This document shows positions 2,270 through 29,647 of a DNA stretch of 64,000 nucleotides, piece by piece. Source of the stretch: Patescibacteria group bacterium (GTDB lineage Bacteria > Patescibacteriota > Microgenomatia > 2-02-FULL-39-11); contig JAMCUI010000011.1 of the NCBI GenBank assembly GCA_023379265.1, positions 4,030-68,029 on the forward strand. Reading direction: 5' to 3'. The notes below the pieces were generated by a model that was given only the letters and a program-made list of their open reading frames with translations, did not search any database and had not been told where the DNA came from. Within the stretch, counting starts at the first letter, position 1, and every line of letters begins with the position of its first letter. The translations under genes were made by a program, and so were the position numbers.

Positions 2270-2298
2270 AGCTTGAGGTATTTCAGAAACTGATTAAC

Positions 2299-3651: not shown

Positions 3652-3655
3652 ACTT

Positions 3656-6042: not shown

Positions 6043-6043
6043 A

Positions 6044-6349
6044 CTAATCCTCAAAAATTGCGTCCACCACAAAATAACCTTTATGTTTTCGGGGAGCATT
6101 TCTTAGCACTTCATCCTGCGGCAATGAGACGCCGGCTTCGTCTTCACGCATGACGTTCTCCATGCCGGTCACCTGGCTTGTCGGCTCAACATTTGTAGTT
6201 TCCACTTTGGAAACCTGTTCCACCAGGTGGAGAATGGATGACAGTTGATCCTGAAAACTCTTTAACTCTCCCGCAGACAGATCCAGTTTTGCCAATGTCG
6301 CGACATGTTTAACTATGTCTGTGGTTAAAATATTTTTTCCTTTTGGCAT
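6044..6349 (-). CDS. gatC: Amidotransferase subunit C
   Basis: It is a ~100 aa protein directly upstream of gatA. ...LSAGELKSFQDQLSSILHLVEQV... matches the GatC fold/length. Confidence 0.75.
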   Translation of the reverse strand: MPKGKNILTTDIVKHVATLAKLDLSAGELKSFQDQLSSILHLVEQVSKVETTNVEPTSQVTGMENVMREDEAGVSLPQDEVLRNAPRKHKGYFVVDAIFED

Positions 6350-6450
6350 ATGCTAATTTTATCTTTTTAGATTACCTATTGCCAGTAGATCATTAAGGCC
6401 AGACTCTTTTTCCCGTCTGACCTTAATATTTGACCTGCCTGAAATTTATG

Positions 6451-7797: not shown

Positions 7798-7976
7798 ATA
7801 AATCCCTTTCAAATTGAACATTTATAAAATAGGTCAAAAAAACTTACATTGTTTTCTATTTCCCTATAAAAAATCTCCCGTTCCTTTAGTTCACTCTCGG
7901 ATTGGGAGACTTCAGCGTCTCATCCACATCATTGTGGAAATATGATATGTATACTAATTTACAAAATACCGCTTTG

Positions 7977-8693
7977 TCAAGACTCAAATTTCATTCTGTC
8001 AGCCAAAATTACAGCTTCGGCAATTTCTTTAAGAGACTTCCTGCTATTCATGCTTTCCTTCTGAATTAACTTATACGCCGCCTCTTCGCTCAAATTCCTC
8101 CTTTTCATCAGTATCCCTTTTGCTTTTTCTATTAACTTTCGCAGCTCCAGCGCTTCCCTCAACGACAATGTTTCCTCTATGAGTAGCGCATTCTCCAGCG
8201 CTCCTCCCACCAGTTTGCCGATTGCCGCAAGAAGGTTTATTTCCATCTTGGTATATTTATGCTTTTTCCTGTACTGTATATTTATCACTCCAGCTACACC
8301 GTGCCGATTCAGAATTGGTACCGACAAAAACCCTTCAAACCTGTCCTCAGGCAGGGAATTAATGGTCTTAAAGCGGATATCTTTATAAGCCCCATCCTTA
8401 AGCATTACAGTCTCTTTCTCTTTGGCCACCCAACCCGTAATGCCTTCTCCCAACTTTAAGGATACTCTTTGTAATAGCGCCGGGTGGGGATTTTTGGAAG
8501 CGCGCAGGGTTAAAATTTGCTTTTGAGAATCATAAGTGTATATGAGACATGAATCTCCTGCTGTCACTTCAAGAGCAATTTTCAATATTTCGCGGAACAG
8601 TTCTTCTATTTCAAGACTGTGCACGCTTTGGGCGATGCGGTATAAAAAGTCCAATTCACGTTTTAGTTCTGAATACTTCGTTTTAATCATCAT
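7977..8693 (-). CDS. GAF-ANTAR domain RNA-binding antitermination regulator
   Basis: An N-terminal GAF-like region is followed by a C-terminal ANTAR helical motif (KAKGILMKRRNLSEEAAYKLIQKESMNSRKSLKEIAEAVI). Confidence 0.7.
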   Translation of the reverse strand: MMIKTKYSELKRELDFLYRIAQSVHSLEIEELFREILKIALEVTAGDSCLIYTYDSQKQILTLRASKNPHPALLQRVSLKLGEGITGWVAKEKETVMLKDGAYKDIRFKTINSLPEDRFEGFLSVPILNRHGVAGVINIQYRKKHKYTKMEINLLAAIGKLVGGALENALLIEETLSLREALELRKLIEKAKGILMKRRNLSEEAAYKLIQKESMNSRKSLKEIAEAVILADRMKFES

Positions 8694-8700
8694 TCGTTAA

Positions 8701-8745
8701 GTTCATAAAGTTCATAAAGTTCATAAAGTTTTTAAAGTTTGCATA
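8701..8745. repeat. 9-bp tandem repeat (gttcataaa x3 perfect plus 2 degenerate) in the promoter region of the GAF-ANTAR gene
   Basis: It reads gttcataaagttcataaagttcataaagtttttaaagtttgcata and starts 8 bp upstream of the ATG at 8693. Confidence 0.8.
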
Positions 8746-8763
8746 GTAATGGATACCTTAACT

Positions 8764-9549
8764 TTAGAAACTTTCTACTTTATAAACTTTTAACTTTTTT
8801 AATATGAAATCGTGCGCTTTCCACTCAAGCGTATCGTCTAGAGGCTCCAATTTTATCTCTTTTTTATACCTGATTTCAAGCGATTTGGATATAAGCCAGT
8901 CTGCAATATGGGGATTTTTGGGTAAAAAAGGACCATGGAAATAACAGGCAATCACATTTTTATATACCGCTCCTTCCGTTTTGTCTTCCCCATTATTTCC
9001 GTATCCCTTTATCACTTTGGCAAAAGGTTTGACATCCTTCCCTAAATATGTTCTGCCCCCGTGGTTTTCAAATCCCACTATGGTGTCTCTCAAATTTCCA
9101 ACTCGGAATTGCCAATCTCCGGTTAACCTGCCCACTGTATTCCCTATGCATCTTGGCTTATCATTACCGAAGTGTCTGGTGACGAAATCAAATATCCCCA
9201 ATCCTTCAAGTTCCTTGCCGTCTCCAGTCATATAATAATGTCCCAAAAGCTGGGGAGAACCGCATACAAACAGTCCGGGAACGCCCCTTTCAAACATTTC
9301 TTTGTAAATACTTACTTTTTGGTGCAAATCCGTAATAACTATAGACTGTTGCCTATCTTGCGCCCCGCCTCCCATGATAAGATCACATTTTGCAATCTCC
9401 GCTTCTCTTGTATCCCTATCTATATTAAATACATTTATATTTATCCTCCGCCACTGACAACGCCTCTTCAGGCAAATGATATTTCCCCGATCCCCATAAG
9501 TAGACATAAGGTCCGGATACAACCAACCTATTTTCAGTTGAAAGTTCAT
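8764..9549 (-). CDS. gatD: Lipid II isoglutaminyl synthase glutaminase subunit (CobB/CobQ-like GATase)
   Basis: It has a GATase fold with the nucleophile in PGLFVCGSPQLLG. It overlaps murT by 4 bp and has the size of S. aureus GatD. Confidence 0.65.
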   Translation of the reverse strand: MNFQLKIGWLYPDLMSTYGDRGNIICLKRRCQWRRININVFNIDRDTREAEIAKCDLIMGGGAQDRQQSIVITDLHQKVSIYKEMFERGVPGLFVCGSPQLLGHYYMTGDGKELEGLGIFDFVTRHFGNDKPRCIGNTVGRLTGDWQFRVGNLRDTIVGFENHGGRTYLGKDVKPFAKVIKGYGNNGEDKTEGAVYKNVIACYFHGPFLPKNPHIADWLISKSLEIRYKKEIKLEPLDDTLEWKAHDFILKKLKVYKVESF

Positions 9550-10880
9550 AGTATTTTTCTCCCCGTCAATATCTTCCTTACCTCTAACATAGCTGAGTAA
9601 GTCGCAAAAACGTATAAAACATCAGATTTAGCCGTGCGCGCCGTACTAGAATTTATCGCTCTCTCCAGGTTTTCTTCGATTTGACATTTAATATTTGCAG
9701 TTTGCACTTTTTCAGAAGTGTATTTTATCCTCAATCCCACATCATACGCCCTGTCACCACTTACGGTAATTTGCACTTTCCCGGGAATCATCTCAAAATC
9801 CACATCCCAGATCCAGGAGACATCGCGTCCGTCCGGTATCCGGTCATTTAAGACCAAAAGAATATTATGAAGTCGTAAGTCAATTACAGTCCGCAACGCT
9901 GCGTTAAATCCTGCGGGATTTTTAGCAAGAAATATCTTTATCTTCTTCCCCTTATACTCAATTTCCTCCTGACGCCCGAATGCCGGCATAAAATCAGAAA
10001 CTGCAACACTTTTCAGAATATCTGTTCCCACTCCCGCCTCTATCGCTGCCCAATATGCGGCCTGACTATTGTATAGATTGTAAATGCCGGCAAGAGGAAA
10101 AGTTAAAACATCACTCTTTACAGCTGGGCGGTGTAATCCGCAATTTTTACAACTCCATTTCCCCAGATGGGAAAAATATACTCCTTCATAGTCAAGTTTT
10201 TGCCCGCATGAGGGGCAATAGATTGAATCAGTCGCGTGTTCATAAGTTTTGAGATAGACTTCCGGTTTATCTAATCCGAAATAAATTGATCTAGCTTTGG
10301 TTTTTCCTCCTATATATGCTACCAAAGGGTCGTCAGCATTCAGTATTAAGGTGGTATTTTCTTTTTTGGACTGATGGGCCAGCACATTTTGCCATTTGCG
10401 TGCAATTAGGTCTACTTCTCCATACCTGTCTAACTGATCTCTAAAAAGATTCAAAAGTACTACAATGATTTTTTTCTTTGCATCAAGGCATCGGTTTATT
10501 TTGGGCAAAACAACAGGCAAAACATTCTCATCTACCTCAAGCACTGCCCATTTTGCGTAAATCCTGCCTTTTGCCGACGACTGCGATATAAATGCGGATA
10601 CGAGGCCGTTTTCAATATTAGCGCCGGACTGATTATGCACCACTTTTACATCTTTACCACTTTTTTCAAGGAATTTACGGATCATAAGGGAAGTAGTAGT
10701 CTTACCGTTTGTGCCTGCAACGATAATTACTCCCTTCTCAACCTGAGAAACAAAATGTTCCAATATTCTATCATTGAAAGTTAAGGCAATCTCTCCCGGC
10801 CATGTACCGCCATTACCAAGATTTAAACTTTTTGAAATGAAGCGGATAATCTTACCTATGAGTATAAGAGGAATAATCAT
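9546..10880 (-). CDS. murT: Mur-ligase-family lipid II isoglutaminyl synthase
   Basis: It has a Mur-ligase P-loop GTNGKTTTS and a Cys4 ribbon (CPSCGQK...CKNCG), with a C-terminal DUF1727-like region. Confidence 0.7.
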   Translation of the reverse strand: MIIPLILIGKIIRFISKSLNLGNGGTWPGEIALTFNDRILEHFVSQVEKGVIIVAGTNGKTTTSLMIRKFLEKSGKDVKVVHNQSGANIENGLVSAFISQSSAKGRIYAKWAVLEVDENVLPVVLPKINRCLDAKKKIIVVLLNLFRDQLDRYGEVDLIARKWQNVLAHQSKKENTTLILNADDPLVAYIGGKTKARSIYFGLDKPEVYLKTYEHATDSIYCPSCGQKLDYEGVYFSHLGKWSCKNCGLHRPAVKSDVLTFPLAGIYNLYNSQAAYWAAIEAGVGTDILKSVAVSDFMPAFGRQEEIEYKGKKIKIFLAKNPAGFNAALRTVIDLRLHNILLVLNDRIPDGRDVSWIWDVDFEMIPGKVQITVSGDRAYDVGLRIKYTSEKVQTANIKCQIEENLERAINSSTARTAKSDVLYVFATYSAMLEVRKILTGRKIL

Positions 10881-10891
10881 TTTCCCAAAAT

Positions 10892-13033
10892 TCAGTTTGG
10901 CAGGATAAAAACAACTTTATCATTCTTTATATCCGCTTGCACTTTATCTCCCTGTTTTACCTTTTCCTCCATAATAAAAAGTGATAGCTCATCCAATATC
11001 TTATCCTGTATCACCCTCTTGAGAGGTCTTGCACCAAAGGAAGGGTCGTATCCAGCCTGTGCGATATATTTCTTCAACTTATCCGTAAATTGTATCTGTA
11101 TATTTTGCCTTGACAATCTTTCTCTTACCATTTCCAATTGCTTATCCGCAATCCGGCCAATAAGGTCGCGCGTCAGTGAACTGAAAAATACTATCTGGTC
11201 CAACCGGTTAAGAAATTCCGGCTTGAAGCTTTGCCGCAGGAGCTGCATAATTTTTACCCTTACAACCTCGTCTATCTTTCCTTTTTCCATAACCAGGTCA
11301 CTGCCCAAATTCGAAGTCAAAATTATGACAGTATTGGTAAAATTTACCATCCTGCCGCGACCGTCCGTAAGTCTGCCGTCATCAAAAATCTGCAAAAAGA
11401 TGTTAAATATCTGGGGATGGGCCTTCTCTATTTCATCAAAAAGAATCACACTATACGGCCTTCTTCTTACCGCTTCAGTCAGCTGTCCTCCCTCCTCATA
11501 ACCTACATAACCAGGAGGTGCGCCAATCAGACGTGCTACTGTATGAGCCTCCTGGTATTCGGACATATCTATTCTTATCATCATCTTCTCGTCATTAAAA
11601 AGTGCCTGCGCCAGGGCCTTGGACAACTCTGTCTTACCCACACCCGTGGGACCAAGGAAGAGAAAAGTACCTATCGGTTTATTTTCCTCTCCGATACCGA
11701 CCCTATTGCGTCGTATGGCTTTTGCCACTTTCTCTACCGCTTCATCCTGACCTACAACTCTTTTCTTTAACTCATCATCAAGATGGAGAAGTCTTTCCGT
11801 TTCCGAACGCAACAGCCGGGTCACTGGAATACCTGTCCATTTGGAAATTACTGAGGCGATATCCTGGTCAGTCACTTCATCCCTTAAAAGCCTTTCATCC
11901 TGGGGAATTTTTTTCCATTGCCCTTCCAATTCCTTTAATTTTTTCTCTATCTCTGGCAGTTTGCCGTACTTTATCTCCGCAGCCTTATCAAGCATTACAT
12001 CTCTTTCCGCTTTTTCAAGTTCAAGCTTCAGCGAATCGTACTGCCGGCGAAGTGCATTAAGTTTCGTCAGTATGGATTTTTGCTCCTGCCATAATTGTGT
12101 CAGTTTTCCTTCTCTATCCTTTAACCCGTTTATTCTCTTTTCCAAATCGCTCCTGCGCTTTTGGGTCGTCTCACCCTTTTCCCTCCTGAGTCCAGTCAGC
12201 TCAATCTCAGCCTGGGTCTTTTGTCTTTTCACCTCATCAAGACCCGCGGGCATGCTTTCTATTTCTATCTTTATGGCTGAGGCTGCTTCATCCACCAGAT
12301 CTATGGCTTTATCAGGCAAAAAACGATCCGTAATGTATCTTTTGGAAAGGGTAACTGCGGCAATCAGGGCATCATCGGTAATTCTAATAGCATGATGCAA
12401 TTCATATTTTTCGCGCAGTCCCCGAAGTATTGAGATTGCATCCTCAACTGATGGTTCATCCACATATATAGGTTGAAACCGTCTTTCCAAAGCTTTATCC
12501 TTCTCGATATATTCCCTGTATTCGTTTACTGTAGTCGCACCTATAGCGTGAAGAGCTCCACGAGCCAGAGCCGGTTTTAATATATTAGCCGCGTCTACAG
12601 CTCCTCCTGCGGCTCCTGCCCCCACCAGCGTATGAAGTTCATCAATGAAAAGTATATATTTTCCGCCTCCCTTCTCCAATTCTGACATCAGTTTTTTCAA
12701 CCTGTTCTCGAATTCCCCCCTGTATGCTGCACCAGCCAAAAGTCCTGCCAAATCCAAAACCAGCACTTCCTTACCCCTCAGTGTTTCAGGTACATCTCCT
12801 GCCACAATTCTCTGTGCCAAACCCTCCACAATAGCAGTTTTCCCTACTCCTGGATCTCCCAAAAGCACAGGATTGTTTTTTGTCCTTCTTGCCAGAATTT
12901 GCATCAGGCGCCTGATCTCACTGTCCCGTCCCACAACAGGATCAAGTTTACCCTCATGCGCCCGCTTTGTCAGGTTGAGAGTATATTTTTCCAGAATGTT
13001 TCCTTCGTGAGGAGGCTCATAATGCATCTGCAT
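10892..13033 (-). CDS. clpB: ClpB-type AAA+ chaperone (two ATPase domains plus a long coiled-coil M-domain; no N-domain)
   Basis: It has GDPGVGKTA Walker A, a long coiled-coil insert (...ELTGLRREKGETTQKRRSDLEKRINGLKDREGKLTQLWQEQ...), and a second AAA domain GPTGVGKTELSKALA. Confidence 0.85.
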   Translation of the reverse strand: MQMHYEPPHEGNILEKYTLNLTKRAHEGKLDPVVGRDSEIRRLMQILARRTKNNPVLLGDPGVGKTAIVEGLAQRIVAGDVPETLRGKEVLVLDLAGLLAGAAYRGEFENRLKKLMSELEKGGGKYILFIDELHTLVGAGAAGGAVDAANILKPALARGALHAIGATTVNEYREYIEKDKALERRFQPIYVDEPSVEDAISILRGLREKYELHHAIRITDDALIAAVTLSKRYITDRFLPDKAIDLVDEAASAIKIEIESMPAGLDEVKRQKTQAEIELTGLRREKGETTQKRRSDLEKRINGLKDREGKLTQLWQEQKSILTKLNALRRQYDSLKLELEKAERDVMLDKAAEIKYGKLPEIEKKLKELEGQWKKIPQDERLLRDEVTDQDIASVISKWTGIPVTRLLRSETERLLHLDDELKKRVVGQDEAVEKVAKAIRRNRVGIGEENKPIGTFLFLGPTGVGKTELSKALAQALFNDEKMMIRIDMSEYQEAHTVARLIGAPPGYVGYEEGGQLTEAVRRRPYSVILFDEIEKAHPQIFNIFLQIFDDGRLTDGRGRMVNFTNTVIILTSNLGSDLVMEKGKIDEVVRVKIMQLLRQSFKPEFLNRLDQIVFFSSLTRDLIGRIADKQLEMVRERLSRQNIQIQFTDKLKKYIAQAGYDPSFGARPLKRVIQDKILDELSLFIMEEKVKQGDKVQADIKNDKVVFILPN

Positions 13034-13136
13034 ATTTTGGATCTTAATGCGCCTTCAACATCATTTACATCTCTTTAAGTATTCGTATTCTTTCTTCTAT
13101 TAGTAAATCCGAAGTTTGGTCAATTCAAAACATTAT

Positions 13137-14063
13137 CTACATGGCCCGTAGTATTTTTATTCTTTCTTCTATTGGCGGATGCGTATCAAAGAGCCCGGCA
13201 AACCAGGCTTTGGCGCTTTTACCCTTGAAAGGATTTTCAATATAAAGGTGTGCGGTAGCATTTGTCGCTCCCCGCATTACAGTCTTATCCTGGGCGATTT
13301 TTTCCAAAGCCGAAGCTAACTCTGCCGGATTTTTGGTAAGGAGTGCCCCTGAGGCATCCGCCAAAAATTCCCTTTTCCGTGATATTGCCAGCTGTATTAT
13401 AGTGGCAATTACCGGAGAAAGTATGGCTAAAACTATACCTAATACCATAATAATCGCACCAAAGCTACTCCTATCCTCCCTACTATCCCGATTTGCTCCT
13501 CCCCACCATAGCATCCTCATAAACCAATCAGACATAAAAGCTACAGTTCCTACCAAGACTGTCACAATAGCCATAAGGCGTGTGTCGTAATTGCCTACAT
13601 GCGACAATTCATGCGCAATCACTCCCTCCAGCTCATCCCTATCCATCTTCTCAAGAAGTCCCCTTGTCACACAGACTACTGCGTGCTGAGGGTCGCGGCC
13701 CGTGGCAAAAGCATTGGGAGCGGCATCCTCAATGATATAAACTTTTGGTTTGGGCAATCCTGCACCTATCGCCAGGTTTTCAGTCACAGTATATAGATCA
13801 AAATCCCTTCTCCTGTCTGCTGGCCGGGCGCCCGACATGGAAAGAACAATTTTGTCACTCCAATAATAGCTTCCCAGACTGGTCAGTCCGGCAAATATGA
13901 GCGCAATTCCCGCCCACGATATGCCATAGCCCGAAGCCTGTCCCAATATAAAGGCTATCATTGCGATAAATACGGTAAAAAAAGCCATTGTGAGAAGGCT
14001 TTTGGTTTTATTGCTTTCTATTTGAGAATATACAGATAAAGCCATTATTTTATTAATTGACAT
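13137..14063 (-). CDS. htpX: M48-family membrane protease HtpX
   Basis: It has the HExxH zinc motif in GVIAHELSHV, N-terminal TM helices and a length of about 300 aa. Confidence 0.85.
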   Translation of the reverse strand: MSINKIMALSVYSQIESNKTKSLLTMAFFTVFIAMIAFILGQASGYGISWAGIALIFAGLTSLGSYYWSDKIVLSMSGARPADRRRDFDLYTVTENLAIGAGLPKPKVYIIEDAAPNAFATGRDPQHAVVCVTRGLLEKMDRDELEGVIAHELSHVGNYDTRLMAIVTVLVGTVAFMSDWFMRMLWWGGANRDSREDRSSFGAIIMVLGIVLAILSPVIATIIQLAISRKREFLADASGALLTKNPAELASALEKIAQDKTVMRGATNATAHLYIENPFKGKSAKAWFAGLFDTHPPIEERIKILRAM

Positions 14064-18801: not shown

Positions 18802-19022
18802 TGCCTCGCCGTAGCTTTAGCGTAGGCGGGATTAGTACACCGGTAGTATGCGTCCTTCCTCCGACGAAAGCTTCGCATTCAGGTGGACACGCTTAAATAC
18901 GAAGTTTTTAGCGGGCAAGATATAAGCATGTTTTATTATACTTATGTAGAGAGAAACAGTTGAAAACTGGGTTCGGAAGAGGATATTATTAAACGAAGAT
19001 TAGACGGCTATTTAAAGTCGTT

Positions 19023-19094
19023 GCGGGCGTAGTTCAGCGGTAGAATGTCTCCTTCCCAAGGAGAAGGTCACCGGTTCAAATCCGGCCGCCCGCT
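19023..19094 (+). tRNA. tRNA-Gly (anticodon CCC)
   Basis: It has acceptor GCGGGCG/CGCCCGC, anticodon loop TTCCCAA and T-loop TTCAAAT. There is one A-C mismatch at the base of the T-stem. Confidence 0.8.
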
Positions 19095-19253
19095 CAAATC
19101 TCCGATTTCTTAGTTTCAGAATATTAGGTTATATTGAAATAATCCACGCTGAACAACATAATCTAAAAAGATCACGCAATCCAGCGTGGAAAATAATACC
19201 TAGAGACAAATCCGCTTGCGGGATAAAACAGATCCGTCTCTGACGAACCTAAC

Positions 19254-19667
19254 CTAATCCGGGACTCTTGGACGCATGCCTGGAGGCAAACCCCAGATTA
19301 CCCATTGGGTCATTCCGACTATAACAAAGCCGGCTATGATGACAATTACGGTTCCCCATGGATAATCATAGGGTAGAAAAGTGGGCGCTAGAAATAGCGT
19401 GAAGAGGCCAATCAGACACATCATTGATCCTGCCGCTTCGACCATACGCAGTATTTGCCTCACCACGAAATCCAACGCCCACCAATTTGGTAGTCGTCCC
19501 CGTGCGTTCTCAATCATCCCTATACTCAGCAACAAGAAAATCAACGTTGCTAAAGTCAAAAGGATGGCAAGACCGCTGAAGGGCCAACGTAACCAAATCA
19601 GTGCGAGGATCAATAGATCGATCCCCCACATTTTGCCCCAGATCGGAATCCTGTTTACTAATTCCAT
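19254..19667 (-). CDS. Hypothetical 4-TM, Trp-rich membrane protein
   Basis: This 137 aa ORF has four hydrophobic segments. It is locally GC-richer than its surroundings. I could not assign a homology. Confidence 0.4.
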   Translation of the reverse strand: MELVNRIPIWGKMWGIDLLILALIWLRWPFSGLAILLTLATLIFLLLSIGMIENARGRLPNWWALDFVVRQILRMVEAAGSMMCLIGLFTLFLAPTFLPYDYPWGTVIVIIAGFVIVGMTQWVIWGLPPGMRPRVPD

Positions 19668-20194
19668 CAGTGGAATTCCTTTCTAGCCGGATTATCTGAT
19701 TCTTTGTCCCTTTGCAGATTTTTTTCAAGTGTATCCCACGGTTTTTCAACCACACTTGTTTTCATTTTGCACGCGAAATTGTGCACCGGAAAAAGAGAGA
19801 CAACCCGATAGCAAAAAAGAATATATTCTTTTCTTTTAACGGATTGTCTCAGCAATATTAATGTGCAAAGATCCGATGTGATAATAGCAGAGGGTTAAAA
19901 CTATAGCAATTTTATGGGAAAAAGGGGAAATTAAAATATGTTTACAGTTTACATTACCAGAAAAATGTCCGGCAGAATCAAAATCATATCCACTAAAACT
20001 ATTTCCAGAAAATGTTATTGAAATATGATTTCTATTTCCATAATGATAAAGTGAAAATGTATCGCCTGATCTGCTACCACTTATATGACATTTTTGGTCA
20101 TAATCGTACAATGAGACATTTCCGTTCTTACACCCTTAAACTTTCCTCCAGAAGAAAATCCGAGGTCCTATTTTACTAAATTTTATAGGGTATT

Positions 20195-23100
20195 CTAATT
20201 TCCACCACTCCAATCTTTGCAAAGTAAATTTGCTTGCTCTAAAACGGTTTGGGTGGCACTTTCCTGCTTATCCGGTGGATAATTATACTTGCGTAGCAGC
20301 TTTTTAACATAAACCCTGAGTTTCGCCTGAACATTTTCCTTTATAGTCCAGTCAATCGTTGTGTTTTTGCGAAGCATGGAAACCAACTCTCTGGCAATCT
20401 GCATAAGTGTTTCGTCTCCTAATTCCCGAATTGCACTTTCATTGATACAAAGCGCATCATAAAAGGCTACTTCCTCAGGACTGAGTCCGATCTCTTTTCC
20501 TCTTTCTTTTTCTGCCCTTATTTTTTTAGCCAGTACTACAAGTTCTGCTATCACTTGAGCCGCTTCAATCGTACGGTTTTGATATTTTTTTATCGTATCC
20601 TCCAACATTTTGGCAAATGACCGTGATTTTACTAAGTTACTCCTCATCATGGTTATGACTTCATCATTTAAAAGACGTTTAAGCATTTCAAAAGCTAAAT
20701 TCTTATGAGGTAAACCTTTTACCTCAGCTAAAAATTCATCTGAAAGTATTGAAATGTCCGGCGCTTTTAATCCTGTGGCCGAATAGATATCGATAACCTT
20801 ATCTGAAACAATCGCTCCAGAAACGATTTGCTTAATAGCCTCTTGATAATCTTCATCTGTCGGACCTCCTCTGCCACCACCATCCCCACCCCCAGCTTTT
20901 CTTATTCCGGCTTTAACGGATTGGAAAAACGCTACTTCATCTCTAATTCTTATTGCTTCTTCGTGAGGCACGGATAATGAAAAAGCAAACGAGAGCTCTG
21001 TGACAGCTTGAACATACCGTTTCTCACCATCTTCTAAACCAAAAACAAAGTCAATCGCTCCCGCTATCATTCGTGTTCTATCCGACGCAGAACCATGAAG
21101 GTCTTTCTTATAATCAAATCCATGATACATACCTGAGACCACCTCATATTTTTCAAGCATAACCATCACCGCTTCTTCTTGAGGTATTGCAACTTTCTTC
21201 CGGTCGTTATCAGCATAGTAGGCAAGGGCTTCTTTTAACTCCGGTGCGATACCCAAATAGTCTACAATCAAGCCTCCTTGTTTGTCTTTGAAAACTCTGT
21301 TTACCCGGGCAATAGTCTGCATCAATCCGTGGCCTTTCATGGGTTTATCGATATACATCGTATGAAGGCTTGGCACATCAAATCCGGTAAGCCACATATC
21401 CCGGACGATAACCAGCTTTAGCTCATCATTGGGATCTTTCATCCTGTTAGCCATATCATGACGTGCCTTTTTGGTTCTGATATGTTTTTGCCAATCCAAA
21501 GGATCCATAGCAGATCCAGTCATTACTATCTTTAGAAAACCACTATTGTCATCTTCTGTTGCCCAGTCAGGACGCAGTTTGGCAATTTCGTTATATAGTT
21601 CAACCGCAATTCTTCGGCTCATCACTACAATCATTCCTTTACCCTCAACTGCGGTAAGTCTATCTTCAAAATGTTCAACTACGTCATGAGCGATAAGAGA
21701 AATTCGCTTAGGAGCACCAACCAAAGCCTCAAGTCGTGCCCACTTGCTTTTAAGTTTCTCTTTCTTTTCAATCTCTTCTCCTTCAGTTAATTCCTCAAAT
21801 TCAGGATCAATCTTTGGTCTTTCTTCTTCTTTCAGGGAAATCTTGGCAAGTCTGGCCTCATAATAAATCGGCACCGTTGCTTTATCTTCAACGGCATGCG
21901 ACACATCGTAGATATCAATATAGTCTCCGAATACTGCCCTGGTATTTTTATCGGTTAGTTCAATTGGGGTTCCGGTAAAGCCAATAAACGAAGCGTTGGG
22001 AAGAGCATCACGCATATATCTTGCAAAACCATCAACAAAATCGTACTGGCTGCGGTGGGCTTCATCAGCAATCACTACGATATTTCTTCTGTCTGACAAA
22101 AGCGGATACTCTTGACAACCGTTTTCAGGAAAAAACTTTTGTATCGTGGTAAAAATCACTCCACCTGAAGCAACTTTAAGATACTCTTTTAATTGCTCTC
22201 TGTCTTCCGCCTGTTTGGGGGTTTGGCGCAGTAAGCTTGAGCATCTGGAAAACGTCCCAAACAATTGGTCGTCAAGATCGTTCCTGTCCGTCAAAACCAC
22301 AATTGTCGGGTTACTAAGATCTTGAATAATCCTGCCCGCATAAAACACCATCGTCAAACTCTTACCTGACCCTTGTGTATGCCAGACAACACCGCAGCGC
22401 CTGTCTCCCTCTTTTTTCGTGGCCTCAATTGTCTTTTTAACCGCCTTATTTGTGGCGTGATATTGATGGTAGGCAGCTACTTTTTTAGTAATCTTCTCTC
22501 CGTCTGTCTCAAACACTACAAAGTTATTGACGATATCTAAAAGTCTTTTCTTTTCAAAAATTCCTTTAAGTAAAACCTCTAATTGAGGTAAAGAATTGGG
22601 CGCCAATTCATCTCCGTCAATTGTTCGCCATCTGGTAAACCATTCTTTGTTAGCAGAAATCGTGCCAACTCTGGCTTCCATACCATCACTGATAATTGAT
22701 AGTTCGTTAAAGGCAAAAAGTGTAGGAATATCGTTCTTGTAGGTTTGAATTTGATTAAACGCTCCGCCGATTGTCGCCCCTGTATCTGCCGGGTTCTTCA
22801 GTTCAATAACCGCAACAGGTAAACCATTTATAAAGATAACTACATCCGGCCGTCTTTGGCTTCTTCCTTCGATAATTGTAAATTGGTTTACTGCAAGAAA
22901 ATCGTTCTTGTCAGGATTTTCTGTATCTAAAATTTTTACTTTGTCTCCAGCGATTGAACCATCCGGCCGTTTATATTCAATATCAATCCCGTCTCGAAGC
23001 ATGGTATGAAAGGCTTTGTTATTAACAATGAGTTTAGGACTGGTAGTTGGTACACGGAGGACTTTTCGTAATGCTTCGTCTTTTGCTTCATCCGGTATTT

Positions 23101-23284
23101 GAGGATTGAATTTGTTAATAGCGTTTTTTAGTCTTTCAACCAGTACCACATCTTGATAACTGGTACGTTCCGGCTTCTCACCATCGGGGGGTGGGGCAAT
23201 TTCAGGTCCTCCGACAACACTATATCCCAGCTCGGCAAGCCATTCGAGCGTTGCCTGTTCTAAGTCTGATTCCGTATATTTCAT
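20195..23284 (-). CDS. hsdR: Type I restriction enzyme R subunit
   Basis: It is 1029 aa. The N-terminal nuclease region ([18 protein letters not shown]) is followed by SF2 helicase motifs ([14 protein letters not shown]; [10 protein letters not shown]). Its start overlaps the upstream gene's stop by 4 bp. Confidence 0.9.
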
Positions 23285-24069
23285 CGTGTATATCTTTCAA
23301 TAAGTAAAAATAATATACAAAGCAAAGTGATAACAGAAATAAATACTAATTTTTTTAATAAAAATGGTATTTTTTTATCATAATCTTCCAGCTTCTTAAA
23401 AATTTCCTGATAAAGAGAATTATATAAATAATTTAAGGAGTCAATTTGACCTTGATTACCGATAAGTTGGTTGTGGATTGTATCATTGGTTAAATATAAC
23501 CTATAGGCTAAATAATGCATATTCCTGTCGATTTTAATTTTACTCTTTGAAAGATTATCTACCGACAGTGAAAAAGCAGGAAACAATACTGCTCTTTTTC
23601 TTAATCCATTATTTTCTAAAAAATCTTGTAAACTACCGGAAAGAATCGGGTTAGCAGTAATGTTATACATCTGGTAATCAAGTTGTTGGTTAAAAGCAAC
23701 TATTCTTTCGTTAAATAAACTAATTTGTCGATATAGTTTTTTTGAAATAACCCTCGAATCACTAATTCCTCGCCTTGCAATTTCCACCGCAGATTCAAAT
23801 GATAATTTGAATACGATTTTATCAGGAGAAAACCATTCTTTGTCTTGATTTTTTATGTATATTCCACCAATCCAAGATGACTGCGCCATTAGTTCATCAA
23901 GAAAAGATTGAAGAAGAGCTTTCCAGGAATCATATTTGTCTAAAATCGACCTTCGATAGGCAATAATTGCTAAAATAAAAGCAACAAAAGTTATCAAGTC
24001 ACCACTTTTGATTGGAGAAAGATAAAAACAGATGAAATCTAATATTAAGTACCCAATTTGATTGCACAT
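23281..24069 (-). CDS. Hypothetical protein with two TM segments, embedded between hsdS and hsdR
   Basis: This 262 aa protein has an N-terminal TM ([14 protein letters not shown]), a C-terminal TM ([17 protein letters not shown]) and a ~180 aa soluble middle. The ATGA overlap with hsdR and the 1-bp gap to hsdS imply co-translation with the restriction-modification genes. Confidence 0.5.
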
Positions 24070-24070
24070 A

Positions 24071-25702
24071 TCAATTCACCCTTAATTTTCCACTCATCAA
24101 CCTTGGTAGTAAAACATTGCGAACCTTACTTAAGTTAATATTTAGCTTTGCTAACAAGACAATTTGCCTTGATATATTCAAAGTCAATTCCGAGTAGTAT
24201 TTAAGCAATACAGAATCAATGTTTGAGAGCACGATCTTATATTCCGACATCTGATTCCAACTAGTTCTTGGCATTTTCGTACCAGTAGATGCATTACTTA
24301 TTTGGGATATAAATTTGTCATCAAACAGAGTAAATAGCATCGGTCCTAAGTATTTTTCATCCTTAGGTTTAATCACTAAAATATCTGTAGAACATATTCC
24401 CTCGAATGGAGCTACTGCAACATTTTTAAAATATGGTCTTAATTTGCCAAAAAGAATGTCTCCTATTGAAAATGACCATTTATCACTAGAAACCTCTGTT
24501 GAAAAACCATAGTTTTCTAATGAGAGTGATCCTCCTGTAAAATGTTCTAAACCTATATACTTAGACTCGGATGATACCGCTCTTGGTTTTATTTTTATCC
24601 TTATATTCTCTGAAATATCACAAAGTTTTTTTATTTCCCATCCCTTCGGTATCTCTCCTAATTCCGACTCAACCATCTCGCCGCCTGCCTGCCTGAGCCT
24701 ACCGGCTATTTCTTCCCGATCCAACCACTTTCTACCAAAACCGGTTTTCAACCACTTTTCTCGAGCTGCTGCCTCCTGTTTGTTTGAAAGTCCTTCCCAA
24801 TGAATAATCTTTACCGGTTTATATTGAAGTGTATATTTTGCACCAGTTCCAGTAACGTGTTCATGATATCGTTTAAGAATAAAATCAGTCATGCCTATGT
24901 AGCGGTATCCGTTTTCCAGCTCGAGAACATAAACAAAATACTTATCAGACTCAGGCGCAGGTAAACCGCCAAATGATTTGTAGCCATAGCACATCAACTC
25001 AAGATGCGCGGCTTGCGTGCGCTCGCCATAGGCGAGCAGGCACGGAAATTCGAAATCCACAAACCACCTATTAAAAAGCGCTTTTCCAATTTCCTCTAAA
25101 GCCGTATTCATCTTTTTATTGAGTTCGATCCTGTCATCAAGAGAAGAAAGAAAACCCGCAATCTGTTTCTGTTGTTGCATCGGAGGACATGGGGCTAATA
25201 TCTTCTTAAAATCGGTTTTATTGAACTTAGGCACTGCACTCCCACTTTTAATATCGTTTAAGGCCTGTTGACCATATATACTCTTTAACCAGTAATAGAA
25301 AAAAGTGTCATCGTATTTTGTCTTAAGGGTTATCGAGTTTGGTCCTAACGTCATTGGGTAATTTAACTGAGGTGCTCTATAAACAGTCCCAGAGTATTCA
25401 CCAACATTAGAAATAATAATTTCACCACCAGTTAATTTTGATTTTTTAAGATATTCATATCCCTCTTTATTTACATAAACAAAATTCCCTTGAAAATTTT
25501 TATTGTAATCAGCTAATCGAATAAGTACTGCGTGGTCAGGGATATCGTTATACCTAACATGAAATTTAAGAGAAGCGAAACTCCCGTTTGCTACATAATC
25601 TGTAACAACACTACATATTTGAGCCATCGTCTCCACCTTCCAATCCTCAGGAATATTGCCGATTTCAGTTTGTTTATATTTCGTTTGACTTTTGTTTGAC
25701 AT
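24071..25702 (-). CDS. hsdS: Type I restriction-modification specificity subunit with an in-frame GIY-YIG (YhbQ/Slx1-type) nuclease domain between the central conserved region and TRD2
   Basis: Two target-recognition domains bracket the conserved ...ALFNRWFVDFEFP and C-terminal ...LPRLMSGKLRV elements. Residues ~240-340 read YFVYVLELENGYRYIGMTDFILKRYHEHVTGTGAKYTLQYKPVKIIHWEGLSNKQEAAAREKWLK, which is the GIY...YIG / R / H / GAKYT / E signature. Confidence 0.85.
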   Translation of the reverse strand: MSNKSQTKYKQTEIGNIPEDWKVETMAQICSVVTDYVANGSFASLKFHVRYNDIPDHAVLIRLADYNKNFQGNFVYVNKEGYEYLKKSKLTGGEIIISNVGEYSGTVYRAPQLNYPMTLGPNSITLKTKYDDTFFYYWLKSIYGQQALNDIKSGSAVPKFNKTDFKKILAPCPPMQQQKQIAGFLSSLDDRIELNKKMNTALEEIGKALFNRWFVDFEFPCLLAYGERTQAAHLELMCYGYKSFGGLPAPESDKYFVYVLELENGYRYIGMTDFILKRYHEHVTGTGAKYTLQYKPVKIIHWEGLSNKQEAAAREKWLKTGFGRKWLDREEIAGRLRQAGGEMVESELGEIPKGWEIKKLCDISENIRIKIKPRAVSSESKYIGLEHFTGGSLSLENYGFSTEVSSDKWSFSIGDILFGKLRPYFKNVAVAPFEGICSTDILVIKPKDEKYLGPMLFTLFDDKFISQISNASTGTKMPRTSWNQMSEYKIVLSNIDSVLLKYYSELTLNISRQIVLLAKLNINLSKVRNVLLPRLMSGKLRVN

Positions 25703-25787
25703 GTTGTATATACTAAGAATGCAGGTGTTGGGTAGGTTTACCTACCAGCAGGGAGGCATAGATTGCATCTATACCCTCCCCATCCTG

Positions 25788-26477
25788 CTACTTTCTACTC
25801 CAATCTACTTCCCAACAATTAAACTTGTTTTTTCCGACTTTTCTTTTAAGTTCCAGCACTTTTTGAGCGATTCTTGTTTTGTTTCCTTCTTTATCTCCAG
25901 AATCTGGATTTAATGAATATAAGAAACCACCCAAAAGCATATCCGCAAGTTGAACAGGTAAAACTCCGTGAGATTCTGTTTGGAGAATATTGTATACTTT
26001 TGGAATATCTTGACAAACAAATTCAATCTTTTTCCGGGAATCCTTTGGTTTACGTTGATAATCTGCAATGATGATGGTTTCTTCACTTTTCCACACAGTT
26101 TTTTTGACCAGCATTTTAATAAATGAGACATATTTTCCCCATCTCTGTATATGATTAGCTGGTTTAATAAAACCTATATCGTTTGTATCAAAATACAAAC
26201 AATTAAATTCCCAATCATAATCTCCATCAAGCTTGCTAATAAAATCAATGTCGAATTGAATACTTTTTGATGTTGTACTTTTAAAACTGAATTCCACTTT
26301 TGTTTCATCTTTCTTTAATTGACTGACCAATCCTTCGTAAACAGGATGAAGACGTTCGAGCAACGCTATTGGTTTTATGTGCTTAAATGCACCAATACCA
26401 AAGTATGACTTTCCATCATGAACTGGATTTAATACCCCACTTTCATCTATAAAAGTAAAGGTTTTAATTACCGTCAT
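25788..26477 (-). CDS. DUF3800-like protein embedded between hsdM and hsdS
   Basis: The N-terminus [18 protein letters not shown] matches the DUF3800 hallmark (hydrophobic-x-DESG). It is 229 aa and its stop overlaps the hsdM start region (26474-26477). Confidence 0.55.
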
Positions 26478-28000
26478 ACTTTGAATCCAACTTTTTCTAA
26501 ATTTTCTCTAATTTTCTGTTCTAAATCCTTTGACTGTTTAAATTGTTCTGATAATTCTTTTGTTAACCTTGTCATCTTTTCCTCAAAGGCCTCATCGTCT
26601 TCCTCTACAAAGTCCGTGCCTACATAACGGCCGGGAGTCAAAACGTATCCGTTCTTTTCGACTTCTTCTATCGATGTTGCCTTGCAAAAACCCTTTATAT
26701 CTTCATATTTACCGTTTTTGTTTCTCCAGTTGTGATATGTTCCTGATATTTGTTGCAGTTCCTCATCCGAAAGTTCCCTGTGTCTTCGGTCAACCAGTTT
26801 TCCCAGCTTACGGGCGTCAATAAAGAGTATTTCATCATGTCTGTCTCTGAATTTGTTGTTATAGCGGTCTCTTGACACAAACCAAAGGCAAGCCGGAATC
26901 TGGACGGTATAAAAAAGTTTATCCGGCATGGCTAAAATACAATCAACCAGTCCGGCTTTTATCATCTTTTTCCTGATTTCTCCCTCGCCTGAAGTATTAG
27001 AGGATAGTGAACCGTTAGCCATGACAAACCCTGCTATACCTGTTGGTGATAAATGATGGATAAAGTGTTGAATCCATCCGTAGTTAGCATTTCCTGTCGG
27101 AGGAGTGCCGTATTTCCACCTTACGTCTTCCCGTAACCGCTCACCGCCCCAGTCGCTGATGTTAAAAGGAGGATTGGCAAGGATAAAATCTGCTTTTAGG
27201 TCTTTATGCTGGTCATTATGGAAGCTGTCACCCAGATAAATATGTTTGCTTTCGATCCCTCTAATAGCCAGATTCATCTTACAAAGCCGCCAGGTGGTAG
27301 CGTTTGACTCCTGCCCGAAGATCGAAACGTCATCAACCCGCCCGCCATGGCTTTCTGCAAACTTCTCGCTTTGCACAAACATCCCGCCACTGCCACAACA
27401 CGGATCAAACACTCTCCCTTTGTATGGCTCAAGCACCGATACCAGAAGTTTGACTACAGATTGCGGGGTAAAGAACTCGCCGCCGCCTTTACCCTCTGCA
27501 CTAGCAAACCTTCCGATGAAATACTCGTAAACCCGGCCGAGTATATCCTTTGACCGGCTTTCCTTATCTCCTAAACCGATTGTGCCTATAAGATCAATAA
27601 GCTCTCCTAATCGCTGTTTATCTAAAGTGGGGCGGGCATAATCTTTGGGAAGCACCCCTTTAAGCGACGGGTTTTCTTTTTCGATTGCCACCATCGCATC
27701 ATCAACAAGTTTTCCAATTTCCGCTTTCTTGGCGTTTTGAAGTAGAAAATTCCAGCGGGCTTCTTGAGGTACCCAGAATACGTTCTCTGCTAAGTATTCG
27801 TCTTTATCCTCTGGATCTGATAATTTGTCAGCTTTTAATTTTTCGTGTAGTTCTTCGAAAGAGTCAGAGATATATTTAAGAAAGATAAGTCCCAATACAA
27901 CATGCTTATACTCTGAGGGGTCCATATTGTTCCGCATCTTATCGGCAGCCGCCCACAGTTTTTCCTCGAACCCCAGGTTTGCAGAAGTTGATTTAGCCAT
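26474..28000 (-). CDS. hsdM: Type I restriction-modification N6-adenine DNA methyltransferase subunit
   Basis: It has the [14 protein letters not shown] (NPPF) catalytic motif, the SAM-binding [11 protein letters not shown] motif and an HsdM N-terminal domain. Confidence 0.9.
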
Positions 28001-28108
28001 AAATCGAATACCATTTAATAAATGACTTATTTTATCACTTTATCTGTAGGTAAACGAGAAGAAATGAGTTGCGGCAGTTCGCAAAATTTAATCCAAAAAA
28101 TACGGAGC

Positions 28109-28948
28109 TTATTTGCCTAAACCAGTAATAATTTGATTAGCTATACCTTCCAAAGAATTTTGCGTTTTGAAAAAATTTGCTTCCCAAGGAGGAGTAAATG
28201 AACTAGTTAATAGAACCGTATCCATCTGAAGCGCATGCGGTGTTACTAAATCAAATTCCCCTCCATTCCCAACAACAACATAAGGGTGTTGTCCCAGGGA
28301 TAAAATAATATTTCCATAGTGTTCTCTTCTTAATAAAACATCACGGCTATTAAGTCCTGGCAACTTCATACTCCACGGAACTCTACTCCAATTTGGGCTA
28401 ATTAGATTCTTATGAGCATTACCCCTTACCTCAATGTTTTCCATAGGAATATTATTACTACTTAAGAAAGGTTCCAGTTTCCTAAGAATATGATCCGGAT
28501 TTGAACCAGAAATAATAACAAGTTTACCAAGAGGTATTATTTCTTTAATTGTGTAAGCTGCATCTGGTCTATAAAAAGAATCTATTTGGGGATAACTTGT
28601 ATATTCTATCCCATCCAAAAATTGAGACATTGCTTCTTCATCTGGTAAACCAGGTTCCAAAGCTTGACGCATCTTTGCAATTGCCCGTTCAGCCGCTACT
28701 CGATTTAACACGATAGTATCAAATGAGGCTGAAGCAATAACAAAACCTTGATGATTTCTCCATCCGTAAACTTCCGGATGTTCTCTTAATTCATATCTTT
28801 CAGGTTCAAGATATTTTGTTACAACATCACTTGGTAAACCGGTTGCCTGTGAAAATTGTTCCTCAAATACGTCAGTATAGGCATCATGCGTCGCTTCAGG
28901 ATCAGTTAAAGTCCCGTCATGATCAAAAATAAATAATTCTTTTGACAT
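28109..28948 (-). CDS. HAD-superfamily hydrolase
   Basis: It has motif I FIFDHDGTLTD, motif II VIISGS and motif IV VGNGGEFD. Confidence 0.65.
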   Translation of the reverse strand: MSKELFIFDHDGTLTDPEATHDAYTDVFEEQFSQATGLPSDVVTKYLEPERYELREHPEVYGWRNHQGFVIASASFDTIVLNRVAAERAIAKMRQALEPGLPDEEAMSQFLDGIEYTSYPQIDSFYRPDAAYTIKEIIPLGKLVIISGSNPDHILRKLEPFLSSNNIPMENIEVRGNAHKNLISPNWSRVPWSMKLPGLNSRDVLLRREHYGNIILSLGQHPYVVVGNGGEFDLVTPHALQMDTVLLTSSFTPPWEANFFKTQNSLEGIANQIITGLGK

Positions 28949-28966
28949 AATAAAACTGATTTAGAT

Positions 28967-29647
28967 CTAATCAGCAATCTGAATACTGGAAGGTCGGGAT
29001 TTTGTCATATAACCTGGTGCAAGTAGTCTGTATTTGAAATCAGATATTTCTATCGGCCTTTTATCAGCAGCAAAATTTATCCCAAATACATAATTTCCAA
29101 AAGTAGTAAGCCAATCAACACGCCTTGGATAACTTATCGGCAAAAAAATTGGCAACTCTTTACTTGATGTTAGATTTTTATACTCTATTTTTTCTCCCCG
29201 CTTTTTATCATAAGCGAGAATTGAAACAAGCTCTGCCTCATCTGGTTTTTGGTTATCGACTTTATATCCAAGCTGATACGCTCTGTTAGAATCAAAATCA
29301 TGATACCAAGCTGTAAAACCACCACCCTTTAGACCGACCAAATCATGCTTTTCATCAAATAAGACATTCATTTCAAGAAGTCTAAGTTGCGGGCCATTTT
29401 CAATGGGAGAGTTAGTATTTATCTCAAGCACGCCGATATTTCTTAGTCCCTCCATTTTCTCTTTATCAGCAAAATCAATACCACGAAATCCGAGATATAT
29501 TGAGAAAATTGTACCCTTATCATCATGATAACTACTTTGCGCAAGACCCATGGGACCAGATTCAGTCCGATCTGATGTTTCCCATCCTTTAAATACTTTT
29601 TCTGCTTCAGAGGTTATATATGGATTAATTTCTTTCAGGTTCAACAT
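28967..29647 (-). CDS. Hypothetical protein (no recognisable motif)
   Basis: This 226 aa ORF shows coding-like composition and sits 18 bp upstream of the HAD hydrolase gene. Confidence 0.4.
   Translation of the reverse strand: MLNLKEINPYITSEAEKVFKGWETSDRTESGPMGLAQSSYHDDKGTIFSIYLGFRGIDFADKEKMEGLRNIGVLEINTNSPIENGPQLRLLEMNVLFDEKHDLVGLKGGGFTAWYHDFDSNRAYQLGYKVDNQKPDEAELVSILAYDKKRGEKIEYKNLTSSKELPIFLPISYPRRVDWLTTFGNYVFGINFAADKRPIEISDFKYRLLAPGYMTKSRPSSIQIAD

Follow-up and report, generated by a model that had tools for sequence, protein, structure and literature searches.

A Type I restriction-modification operon of an uncultured Patescibacteria bacterium with candidate defence cargo, a DUF3800 gene with a linked RNA element and a predicted membrane protein, and with a GIY-YIG module within HsdS

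The embedding of additional genes in Type I restriction-modification (R-M) operons is an established phenomenon, and the operon described here is a further instance. It is encoded on the minus strand, at positions 20195-28000, of a 64,000-nt stretch of DNA from Patescibacteria group bacterium (assembly GCA_023379265.1, contig JAMCUI010000011.1, positions 4,030 to 68,029), hereafter called the window, and carries among its hsd genes one gene for a DUF3800 protein and one for a membrane protein of 262 amino acids (aa), here named TM262. Several embedded genes have already been characterized. The anticodon nuclease PrrC in EcoprrI acts as a guard of the R-M system and is activated on restriction inhibition (PMC12707154). 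The Type IV system TgvAB is situated inside the Type I R-M operon of Vibrio cholerae VPI-2 and contributes a complementary defence (PMC11411939). Moreover, a guilt-by-embedding survey, which is also the source of the PDC models in PADLOC, reported that over half of the genes residing within Type I R-M loci are without assigned function (Payne et al., 2024; bioRxiv 10.1101/2024.01.29.577857). These PADLOC candidates, which stem from genes located inside BREX, DISARM or Type I R-M systems, already include a DUF3800-like protein. The preliminary description of the window, in which canonical loci were said to contain hsdR, hsdM and hsdS only, thus undersells how much embedding is known.

Compared to these systems, TM262 resembles PrrC in its position, since the extra gene of EcoprrI (hsdM-hsdS-prrC-hsdR) is likewise placed between hsdS and hsdR. 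However, TM262 is free of the AAA_13/ABC ATPase and anticodon nuclease domains of PrrC and RloC in searches of Pfam, NCBIfam and PADLOC, and it is predicted to be all-helical and membrane-tethered. Furthermore, it occurs together with many types of R-M; latency under an R-M enzyme is a feature of PrrC. TgvAB and the PADLOC candidates are comparable in that their genes interrupt Type I operons and have a known or predicted role as independent, complementary defences, but the cargo of the window includes an RNA element and TM262 is not in PADLOC.

Published work places the DUF3800 domain, as accessory or effector, with retrons and CRISPR systems (PMC7736814, PMC10910872, PMC13594972), i.e. with retrons of type VII, as TPR-DUF3800 with Cas12a2/a3 and as Csx32 with Cas13 (also bioRxiv 10.64898/2026.08.25.746378). 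The window protein shares with these the domain, the DE and QxxD motifs and the RNase H2-like fold, but it is a stand-alone protein of 229 aa with neither a TPR nor a reverse transcriptase (RT) partner, and it is embedded in R-M genes. In addition, eleven RNA motifs linked to DUF3800 genes, DUF3800-I to DUF3800-XI, have been published (Weinberg et al., 2017, PMC5737381; Rfam RF02964, RF02968, RF02969 and others). The RNA element of the window is also structured, covarying and tied to DUF3800 genes, and the motifs V and IX of related loci likewise lie at the 3' end of their genes, on the antisense strand in their case; it differs by its own fold, its near-invariant hairpin and its tie to one DUF3800 subfamily. 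To our knowledge, a biochemical activity is known for no member of DUF3800. Type I toxin-antitoxin systems with a cis-antisense RNA, such as SymE/SymR and txpA/RatA, the latter with a 3' overlap, offer another parallel: a promoter-driven, structured small RNA runs antisense to a potentially toxic gene, whose end it overlaps. Unlike in these systems, the covariation of the window RNA indicates that its own fold matters beyond complementarity. A type III toxin-antitoxin arrangement (ToxIN-like), in which a terminator separates an endoribonuclease toxin gene from a tandem-repeat RNA antitoxin upstream, was considered and rejected, since only one copy of the element is present, this copy follows the gene at its 3' end, and there are no tandem repeats.

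The explanation that we moderately favour is an R-M operon that carries second-line antiviral cargo modules, which would be expressed along with the R-M genes but, like TgvAB, would be autonomous and not subunits of the enzyme. Both gene families occur with unrelated types of R-M and also without R-M, which speaks for autonomous cargo rather than for co-functioning modules. The preliminary description had regarded the extra genes as co-functioning with this R-M system; the association with unrelated types, and the different content of the same slot in the nearest relative of the operon, point instead to exchangeable cargo. For the cargo genes themselves we infer a role in defence.

Exchangeable cargo slots between the hsd genes

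The operon consists of five open reading frames (ORFs) in the order hsdM, DUF3800, hsdS, TM262 and hsdR. In the comparison with related loci (given here as L numbers), the junctions hsdM/hsdS (slot 1) and hsdS/hsdR (slot 2) are recognisable as slots for exchangeable cargo genes. The closest relative of the backbone, L063, with HsdM 87% and HsdR 89% identical to the window, is a twelve-gene version of the operon (2001-14018), in which DUF3800 and four further genes precede hsdS. Its slot 2 is occupied by four unrelated genes ahead of hsdR, one of them SIR2-like, and TM262 is missing. In L051, slot 2 is filled by a Shedu-type SduA_C gene, in L049 by a 345-aa gene of no recognised family and in L061 by an AAA_13 ATPase gene. 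AAA_13 is the Pfam family of PrrC and RloC. L065 has YhcG in slot 1 and RhuM in slot 2, and the TM262 loci that lack DUF3800 show RhuM, Bro-N or unknown genes in slot 1. Such turnover of cargo on the same backbone indicates that the slot contents are exchangeable. As a side observation, a PhdYeFM/ParE pair and RadC are encoded upstream in L063, and a second DUF3800 gene follows on the opposite strand just past hsdR.

The preliminary description had made its case dependent on a linkage of the two embedded genes to R-M or defence loci elsewhere, and such a linkage exists for both. Among 38 distinct TM262 loci, which were annotated by tblastn, clustering and Pfam, 28 have an M, S or R gene not more than three genes away. 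The commonest place is between hsdS and hsdR of Type I operons, and in four loci TM262 is found between hsdM and hsdS. Other settings include an N6_N4 methylase with an endonuclease of the MvaI/BcnI family (Type II), Type III-like Mod and Res genes, C5 methylases and an M-S fusion; further neighbours are an RT with a PD-(D/E)XK nuclease and an OLD-family ATPase. In L001 and L002, the five genes follow each other as in the window. The backbone of L002 is a different Type I system (hsdM and hsdR 23-31% identical), yet its TM262 is 74% identical to that of the window; the TM262 gene hence moves between backbones. An obligate pairing of TM262 with DUF3800 was considered and rejected, as DUF3800 is present in only three of the seven TM262 loci with a readable hsdM/hsdS slot.

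The DUF3800 subfamily is embedded in or abuts R-M genes in 11 of 15 distinct loci. It stands between hsdM and hsdS in the window and in L001, L045, L049, L051, L061 and L063, and between hsdS and hsdR in L046 and L057, precedes an N6_Mtase/Type_ISP_C protein in L047 and overlaps the end of a ResIII gene in L059. In L052 and L055, R-M genes are encoded within 3 kb of DUF3800. L044 from Candidatus Blackburnbacteria (7570-8765) is a decayed operon in which hsdS and hsdR are gone and hsdM has shrunk to an in-frame remnant of 144 aa (aa 1-52 joined to 421-508). The DUF3800 gene, 82% identical to that of the window, is intact there, and the same is true for the RNA element next to it (99 bits). As judged from these loci, the unit of DUF3800 and RNA moves between R-M operons of different types and outlasts the decay of the R-M genes.

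The DUF3800 gene and its structured RNA element

The DUF3800 gene (25788..26477, minus strand; 229 aa) encodes a predicted RNase HII-like nuclease, based on PF12686, PADLOC and an AlphaFold2 (AF2) model compared by Foldseek. Its family assignment and N-terminus were correctly given in the preliminary description: the match to PF12686 reaches 28.7 bits, compared to a Pfam gathering cut-off of 21 (E 2.4e-6), and covers profile positions 3-148 of 149. The PADLOC candidate PDC-M04A matches weakly (2e-8, 31.9 bits). PDC-M04 is a multi-gene candidate, and its other components were matched by none of the operon proteins in PADLOC; our literature search returned nothing on PDC-M04.

Structure prediction had been proposed for both extra proteins. 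For DUF3800, the AF2 model (pLDDT 90.8, pTM 0.90) found its best Foldseek matches in RNase HII and H2A (2dff, 1eke, 3puf) with a probability of 1.0 and E of ~3e-4, at a TM-score of only ~0.43; the structural neighbours are thus archaeal RNase HII and human RNase H2A. A search of the family profile against the sequences of solved structures gave nothing meaningful. The predicted fold agrees with the RNase H-like fold that was modelled for DUF3800 before (PMC7736814, PMC10910872). Furthermore, the subfamily is tight (74 homologues with at least 51% identity), and in 27 homologues D11-E12, D139 and Q176-L-A-D179 are invariant, as is H170 in the subfamily. Among these, D11-E12 and Q176..D179 correspond to the N-terminal DE and the C-terminal QxxD motifs that have been described for the family (PMC7736814). 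The model hence predicts an RNase HII-like fold and a nuclease. Among the plasmids in PLSDB, only distant DUF3800 proteins of Campylobacter were found, and none of the window type.

Between the stop codon of DUF3800 (TAG, 25788-25790) and the ATG of hsdS (25702) lies a spacer of 85 nt, which had been described as short and structured. Structured it is, as it folds better than shuffled sequences in sense (z -2.9) and antisense (z -3.05) orientation. However, it is not a mere spacer; it contains a conserved DUF3800-linked RNA element of ~70 nt with three helices (25721..25788, probably plus strand), which overlaps the DUF3800 stop codon and was defined by covariation and a covariance model. By a fuzzy search and then the covariance model, one copy was found at the stop codon of each DUF3800 gene of the subfamily, in 15 distinct loci. 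The element is there irrespective of what comes next, be it hsdS or hsdR, a gene for a methylase, a recombinase or a MazG-like protein, or no gene at all. The examined loci without DUF3800 (TM262 loci and a locus with a GIY-YIG-bearing HsdS) contain no copy, nor was one of its core found in viral contigs. A role of the spacer as hsdS leader was rejected, since the element tracks DUF3800 and not hsdS.

The element is built from a closing helix and two hairpins, and 94.9% of the cells in its alignment are paired. Double-sided changes were counted in 11 pairs, compared to 4.6±1.2 in shuffled alignments (0/500) and at most 4 in slid controls. RNAalifold independently yielded identical helices with 12 of 24 pairs compensatory, and the covariance model built from 15 sequences recovered the held-out copy of L063 with 98 bits. 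No match at E<=10 was obtained in Rfam 15, neither with a 171-nt query around the spacer nor, apart from a tRNA, in a scan of 19000-29500. As positive control, the same library detected DUF3800-V and DUF3800-IX in related loci with 60-68 bits, where both adjoin sister DUF3800 paralogues at the 3' end, on the antisense strand. The element would represent a further class beside the eleven published DUF3800 motifs, as far as these are included in Rfam, with which it was compared.

Regarding its strand, a sigma-70-type promoter-like site on the plus strand (25685..25714; TTGACT, 18 nt, TATACT), which was found by a generic scan and comparison of the 15 loci, overlaps the start region of hsdS. The -10 hexamer agrees with TATAAT in at least five of six positions in 15/15 loci and is located on the antisense strand 6-8 nt ahead of the element, at 6 nt in 12/15. 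A -35 hexamer matching in at least five of six positions at a distance of 17-19 nt is present in 8/15, and the intervening bases vary. The four sense-strand mismatches at variable positions are all A.C, which become G.U on the antisense strand. The variable positions, the promoter and the antisense orientation of the sister motifs favour the antisense strand. An invariant U.G pair, with which 98.3% of the cells are paired in sense versus 95.6% in antisense orientation, had been the basis of an initial sense-strand reading, which we revised after the Rfam control and the promoter analysis. Hence, the element is quite probably a small RNA gene that is transcribed antisense into the end of DUF3800.

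Two observations concern individual variants. In DUF3800 proteins of 235 aa, the C-terminal tail SRIERV results from translation into the element's 5' part (AGC AGG ATT GAG AGG GTA TAG; window 25776-25790), and the apparent conservation of this protein tail is a by-product of the nucleic-acid element underneath. The spacers of related loci are nearly identical in DNA, including that of L002, though the DUF3800 protein of L002 is only a remote relative (pairwise E 0.005). The L002 copy of the element is present without a DUF3800 gene of the cognate subfamily and adjoins the DUF3800-V RNA of a distant paralogue; the direct repeats ACTTGTCAAGTAT (1838-1850 and 1958-1972) flank it, and the -35 of the antisense promoter comes from the second repeat.

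TM262, the GIY-YIG module of HsdS and the operon backbone

TM262 (23281..24069, minus strand) had been described as a membrane protein without recognisable family, and indeed no match was found in the four HMM libraries Pfam, NCBIfam, PADLOC and PHROGs. By hydropathy and AF2 it is predicted to be an all-alpha protein with one transmembrane helix at each end: two hydrophobic segments, at about aa 20-43 and 236-258, agree with the helices that had been noted before. K/R-rich flanks face the central domain at both helices, and according to the positive-inside rule the core of ~190 aa would be cytoplasmic. The AF2 model (pLDDT 87.8) is all-helical with 11 helices. Foldseek returned nothing at E<=1e-3 in PDB or BFVD, and the family profile nothing meaningful among PDB sequences. 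A word-indexed search yielded 17 homologues (36-77% identical), among which 30 residues do not vary, while an exhaustive comparison of the profile with 1.84 billion cluster representatives gave 92 matches, all of ~250 aa. By these searches the family is rare and single-domain. Relatives of TM262 were not found in PLSDB plasmids. Viral contigs contained relatives neither of TM262 nor of DUF3800, which counts neither for nor against a defence role.

The specificity subunit HsdS (24071..25702, minus strand; 543 aa, two target-recognition domains) was present where the preliminary description had placed it, which had overlooked that it contains an in-frame nuclease module. HsdS itself is well assigned by Methylase_S in two stretches (3.2e-23), by Specificity_I of PADLOC (3.6e-65) and by matches to the solved HsdS chains 7vru and 1yf2. 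The window protein is ~110 aa longer than its relatives. The additional part is a GIY-YIG module at ~aa 221-339 (24686..25042, minus strand), in which PF01541 matches aa 254-320 with E 1.9e-10 and 41.3 bits (threshold 22.6). Among solved structures it comes closest to 1zg2 and 1ywl, which are small UPF0213 proteins that stand alone. It is inserted after the central conserved helix and before the second target-recognition domain, and HsdS aligns with uninserted HsdS proteins on either side of it. In the alignment, the module (FPC...GIY-YIG...GRLRQAGG) replaces the short linker FP[ND]E.G.PYKSSGG; at this point the uninserted proteins read FP[ND]E.G.PYKSSGGEMV. The module is found at the identical point in at least ten HsdS proteins whose recognition domains are unrelated, two of them with the source names Nitrospinae and Verrucomicrobiota. 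It accompanies DUF3800 in L049 and L063, and is also present in L065, where DUF3800 is absent. Read by eye with regard to the active-site Tyr, Tyr, Arg and Glu of GIY-YIG nucleases, the insert-bearing proteins show.Y.L...YIG.....R..EH....RE.WLK with a nearly invariant Y268. Our literature search, at the level of titles and abstracts, found no paper on a GIY-YIG module inside HsdS. Other long HsdS proteins of ~520-640 aa (P0134, P0152, P0160, P0165, P0166 and others) contain Pol-beta/NTP_transf_2 nucleotidyltransferase domains (PF18765, PF01909) and no GIY-YIG. Extra enzyme domains seem to recur in long HsdS proteins.

The two remaining genes complete the R-M backbone. The methyltransferase subunit HsdM (26474..28000, minus strand; 508 aa) matches HsdM_N (2.3e-29) and, over the whole profile, N6_Mtase (2.5e-108) in Pfam as well as MTase_I of PADLOC (3.8e-235). 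In the restriction subunit HsdR (20195..23284, minus strand; 1029 aa), the N-terminal nuclease, the SF2 translocase and the C-terminal helical domain are all matched, with HSDR_N (1.7e-51), SWI2_SNF2 (7.7e-84), T1R_D3-like and T1RH-like_C (1.1e-126) in Pfam and TIGR00348 in NCBIfam (639.7 bits, cut-off 284.55). The nearest solved structure is HsdR of EcoR124I (2w00, E 4.4e-42), for which reason we call the system Type IC-like. Judged by its genes, the operon is an intact Type IC-like Type I R-M system.

The five-gene layout of the preliminary description was reproduced exactly, including coordinates, overlaps and the 1-nt gap. Overlaps of 4 nt (ATGA) join hsdM to DUF3800 (26474-26477) and TM262 to hsdR (23281-23284), and the hsdS stop (TGA, 24071-24073) is separated by 1 nt from the TM262 ATG (24069). 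We infer that the five genes are co-transcribed and translationally coupled at the overlaps. A terminator-like hairpin (28084-28069) ends the gene upstream of hsdM, and the operon promoter would lie past it, within 28001-28068.

The genes flanking the operon look like ordinary housekeeping genes. A tRNA-Gly(CCC) is encoded on the plus strand at 19023-19095, 1.1 kb past the hsdR stop, and the region 19096-20194 contains short ORFs only, including one for 137 hydrophobic aa (19254-19667, minus strand). In the window, searches around the operon revealed neither a transposase, integrase or recombinase gene nor terminal or boundary repeats. A search for attachment-site repeats in 18900-28300 gave only short matches, probably by chance; one of them, a 14/15-nt match between the anticodon arm of the tRNA-Gly (19052-19066) and the 3' end of hsdM's upstream neighbour (28180-28194), roughly brackets the operon and is probably due to chance as well. 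An integron-type cassette, which would have an integrase gene and attC-type sites at its borders, was rejected, given that there is no integrase or recombinase ORF nearby and there are no boundary repeats.

Proposed defence cargo and its alternatives

It is conceivable, although in our estimation unlikely, that the extra genes encode accessory subunits or regulators of this R-M enzyme. In that case TM262 would tether HsdR or the complex where foreign DNA enters, the RNA would set the ratio of HsdM:HsdS:HsdR, and DUF3800 would process RNA-DNA hybrids during translocation. The tight start/stop overlaps with hsdM and hsdR fit such a role, as does the fact that TM262 immediately precedes hsdR in most Type I loci and that the RNA element and its promoter overlap the start region of hsdS. 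However, TM262 accompanies Type I backbones of 23-31% identity as well as Type II and Type III-like systems, C5 methylases, RTs and OLD ATPases, and such a variety of systems and positions argues against a specific contact with one HsdR. Moreover, the RNA tracks DUF3800 whatever gene follows and is not found upstream of hsdS where DUF3800 is lacking, and the nearest backbone relative, L063, does without TM262. An improbable alternative of another kind regards the cargo as selfish hitch-hikers, i.e. addiction modules or remnants of mobile elements which secure their own persistence or that of the operon but do not protect from phages. The intact pair of DUF3800 and RNA beside the hsdM remnant in L044, its solitary occurrence in L052-54, the fast turnover of the slot contents, a serine recombinase adjoining the DUF3800 unit in L059 and an IS110 transposase adjoining TM262 in L032 are all in line with it. 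Nevertheless, neither transposase nor integrase nor terminal repeats surround the window operon, conservation is strong in both proteins and includes invariant polar residues, and the alternative slot occupants bear recognised defence-type domains (SIR2, SduA_C, AAA_13); addiction and abortive-infection roles can also coexist.

We regard it as very unlikely that the spacer is an element at the DNA level, such as an operator or a site where cassettes are exchanged by recombination, whose link to DUF3800 is incidental. The central hairpin is a near-invariant, operator-like inverted repeat (ATAGAT-gca-ATCTAT), and the L002 copy, without cognate subfamily gene, stands between direct repeats. But compensatory changes keep three helices paired far above the shuffled and slid controls, a conserved promoter is found at the fixed distance of 6 nt, the DUF3800-V and DUF3800-IX RNAs hold the same place beside sister paralogues, and most loci have no accompanying recombinase gene. 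It must also be mentioned that several points weigh against the autonomous antiviral cargo that we favour. The PDC-M04A match of DUF3800 is weak and its partner component was not found in the operon; TM262 matches no PADLOC model. Approximately one quarter of the TM262 loci show no R-M gene (a short contig, or unannotated or housekeeping neighbours), and in L038 a glutamyl-tRNA synthetase gene is located two genes upstream of TM262. Furthermore, an antisense promoter between DUF3800 and hsdS would oppose a simple co-transcription of the operon, and the invariant U.G pair, taken by itself, favours a sense-strand RNA.

If the genes are autonomous antiviral cargo, DUF3800 would be a metal-dependent nuclease, which the cis-antisense structured RNA would keep silent or bind. 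Once an infection upsets transcription or the stability of RNA, the nuclease would become free and growth arrest of the cell would follow. By analogy to the geometry of type I toxin-antitoxin systems, it is possible, though rather doubtful, that the antisense RNA gates DUF3800 in this way and is released on infection. The survival of the pair in the decayed L044 and as a solitary unit in L052 fits an addictive or self-sufficient module. TM262, with its core in the cytoplasm, would act at the membrane's inner face, be it as trigger of abortive infection or as an entry block; we propose it only tentatively as a membrane-level effector of abortive infection or exclusion. The GIY-YIG module in turn raises the possibility of a Type I enzyme that cuts via its specificity subunit. 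Still more speculative is the generalisation that DUF3800 proteins are RNA-partnered nucleases, each subfamily having a private, promoter-driven, structured antisense small RNA which gates or directs the enzyme, and that here, together with TM262 and a nuclease-bearing HsdS, they may form a layered fail-safe around the Type I enzyme.

The general picture is unchanged by this locus: embedded defence genes are an accepted idea, and DUF3800 is a catalogued type of cargo, while TM262 is an uncatalogued one. New are the TM262 family with its strong linkage to R-M, an unlisted, probable small RNA linked to DUF3800 and the recurrent GIY-YIG module in HsdS. TM262 is not listed in today's catalogues of defence systems; with it, the set of genes embedded in restriction systems gains a candidate that is tethered to the membrane. 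The association of DUF3800 genes with many unrelated RNA motifs has been unexplained since 2017, and the domain is now seen beside retrons, Cas12a2/a3 and Cas13. The present locus offers a minimal testable case for it, with a predicted nuclease of 229 aa and an RNA of 70 nt which has a clear promoter, covariation and a one-to-one link to the gene. Moreover, the exchange of cargo on a near-identical backbone shows how R-M operons diversify in uncultured Patescibacteria.

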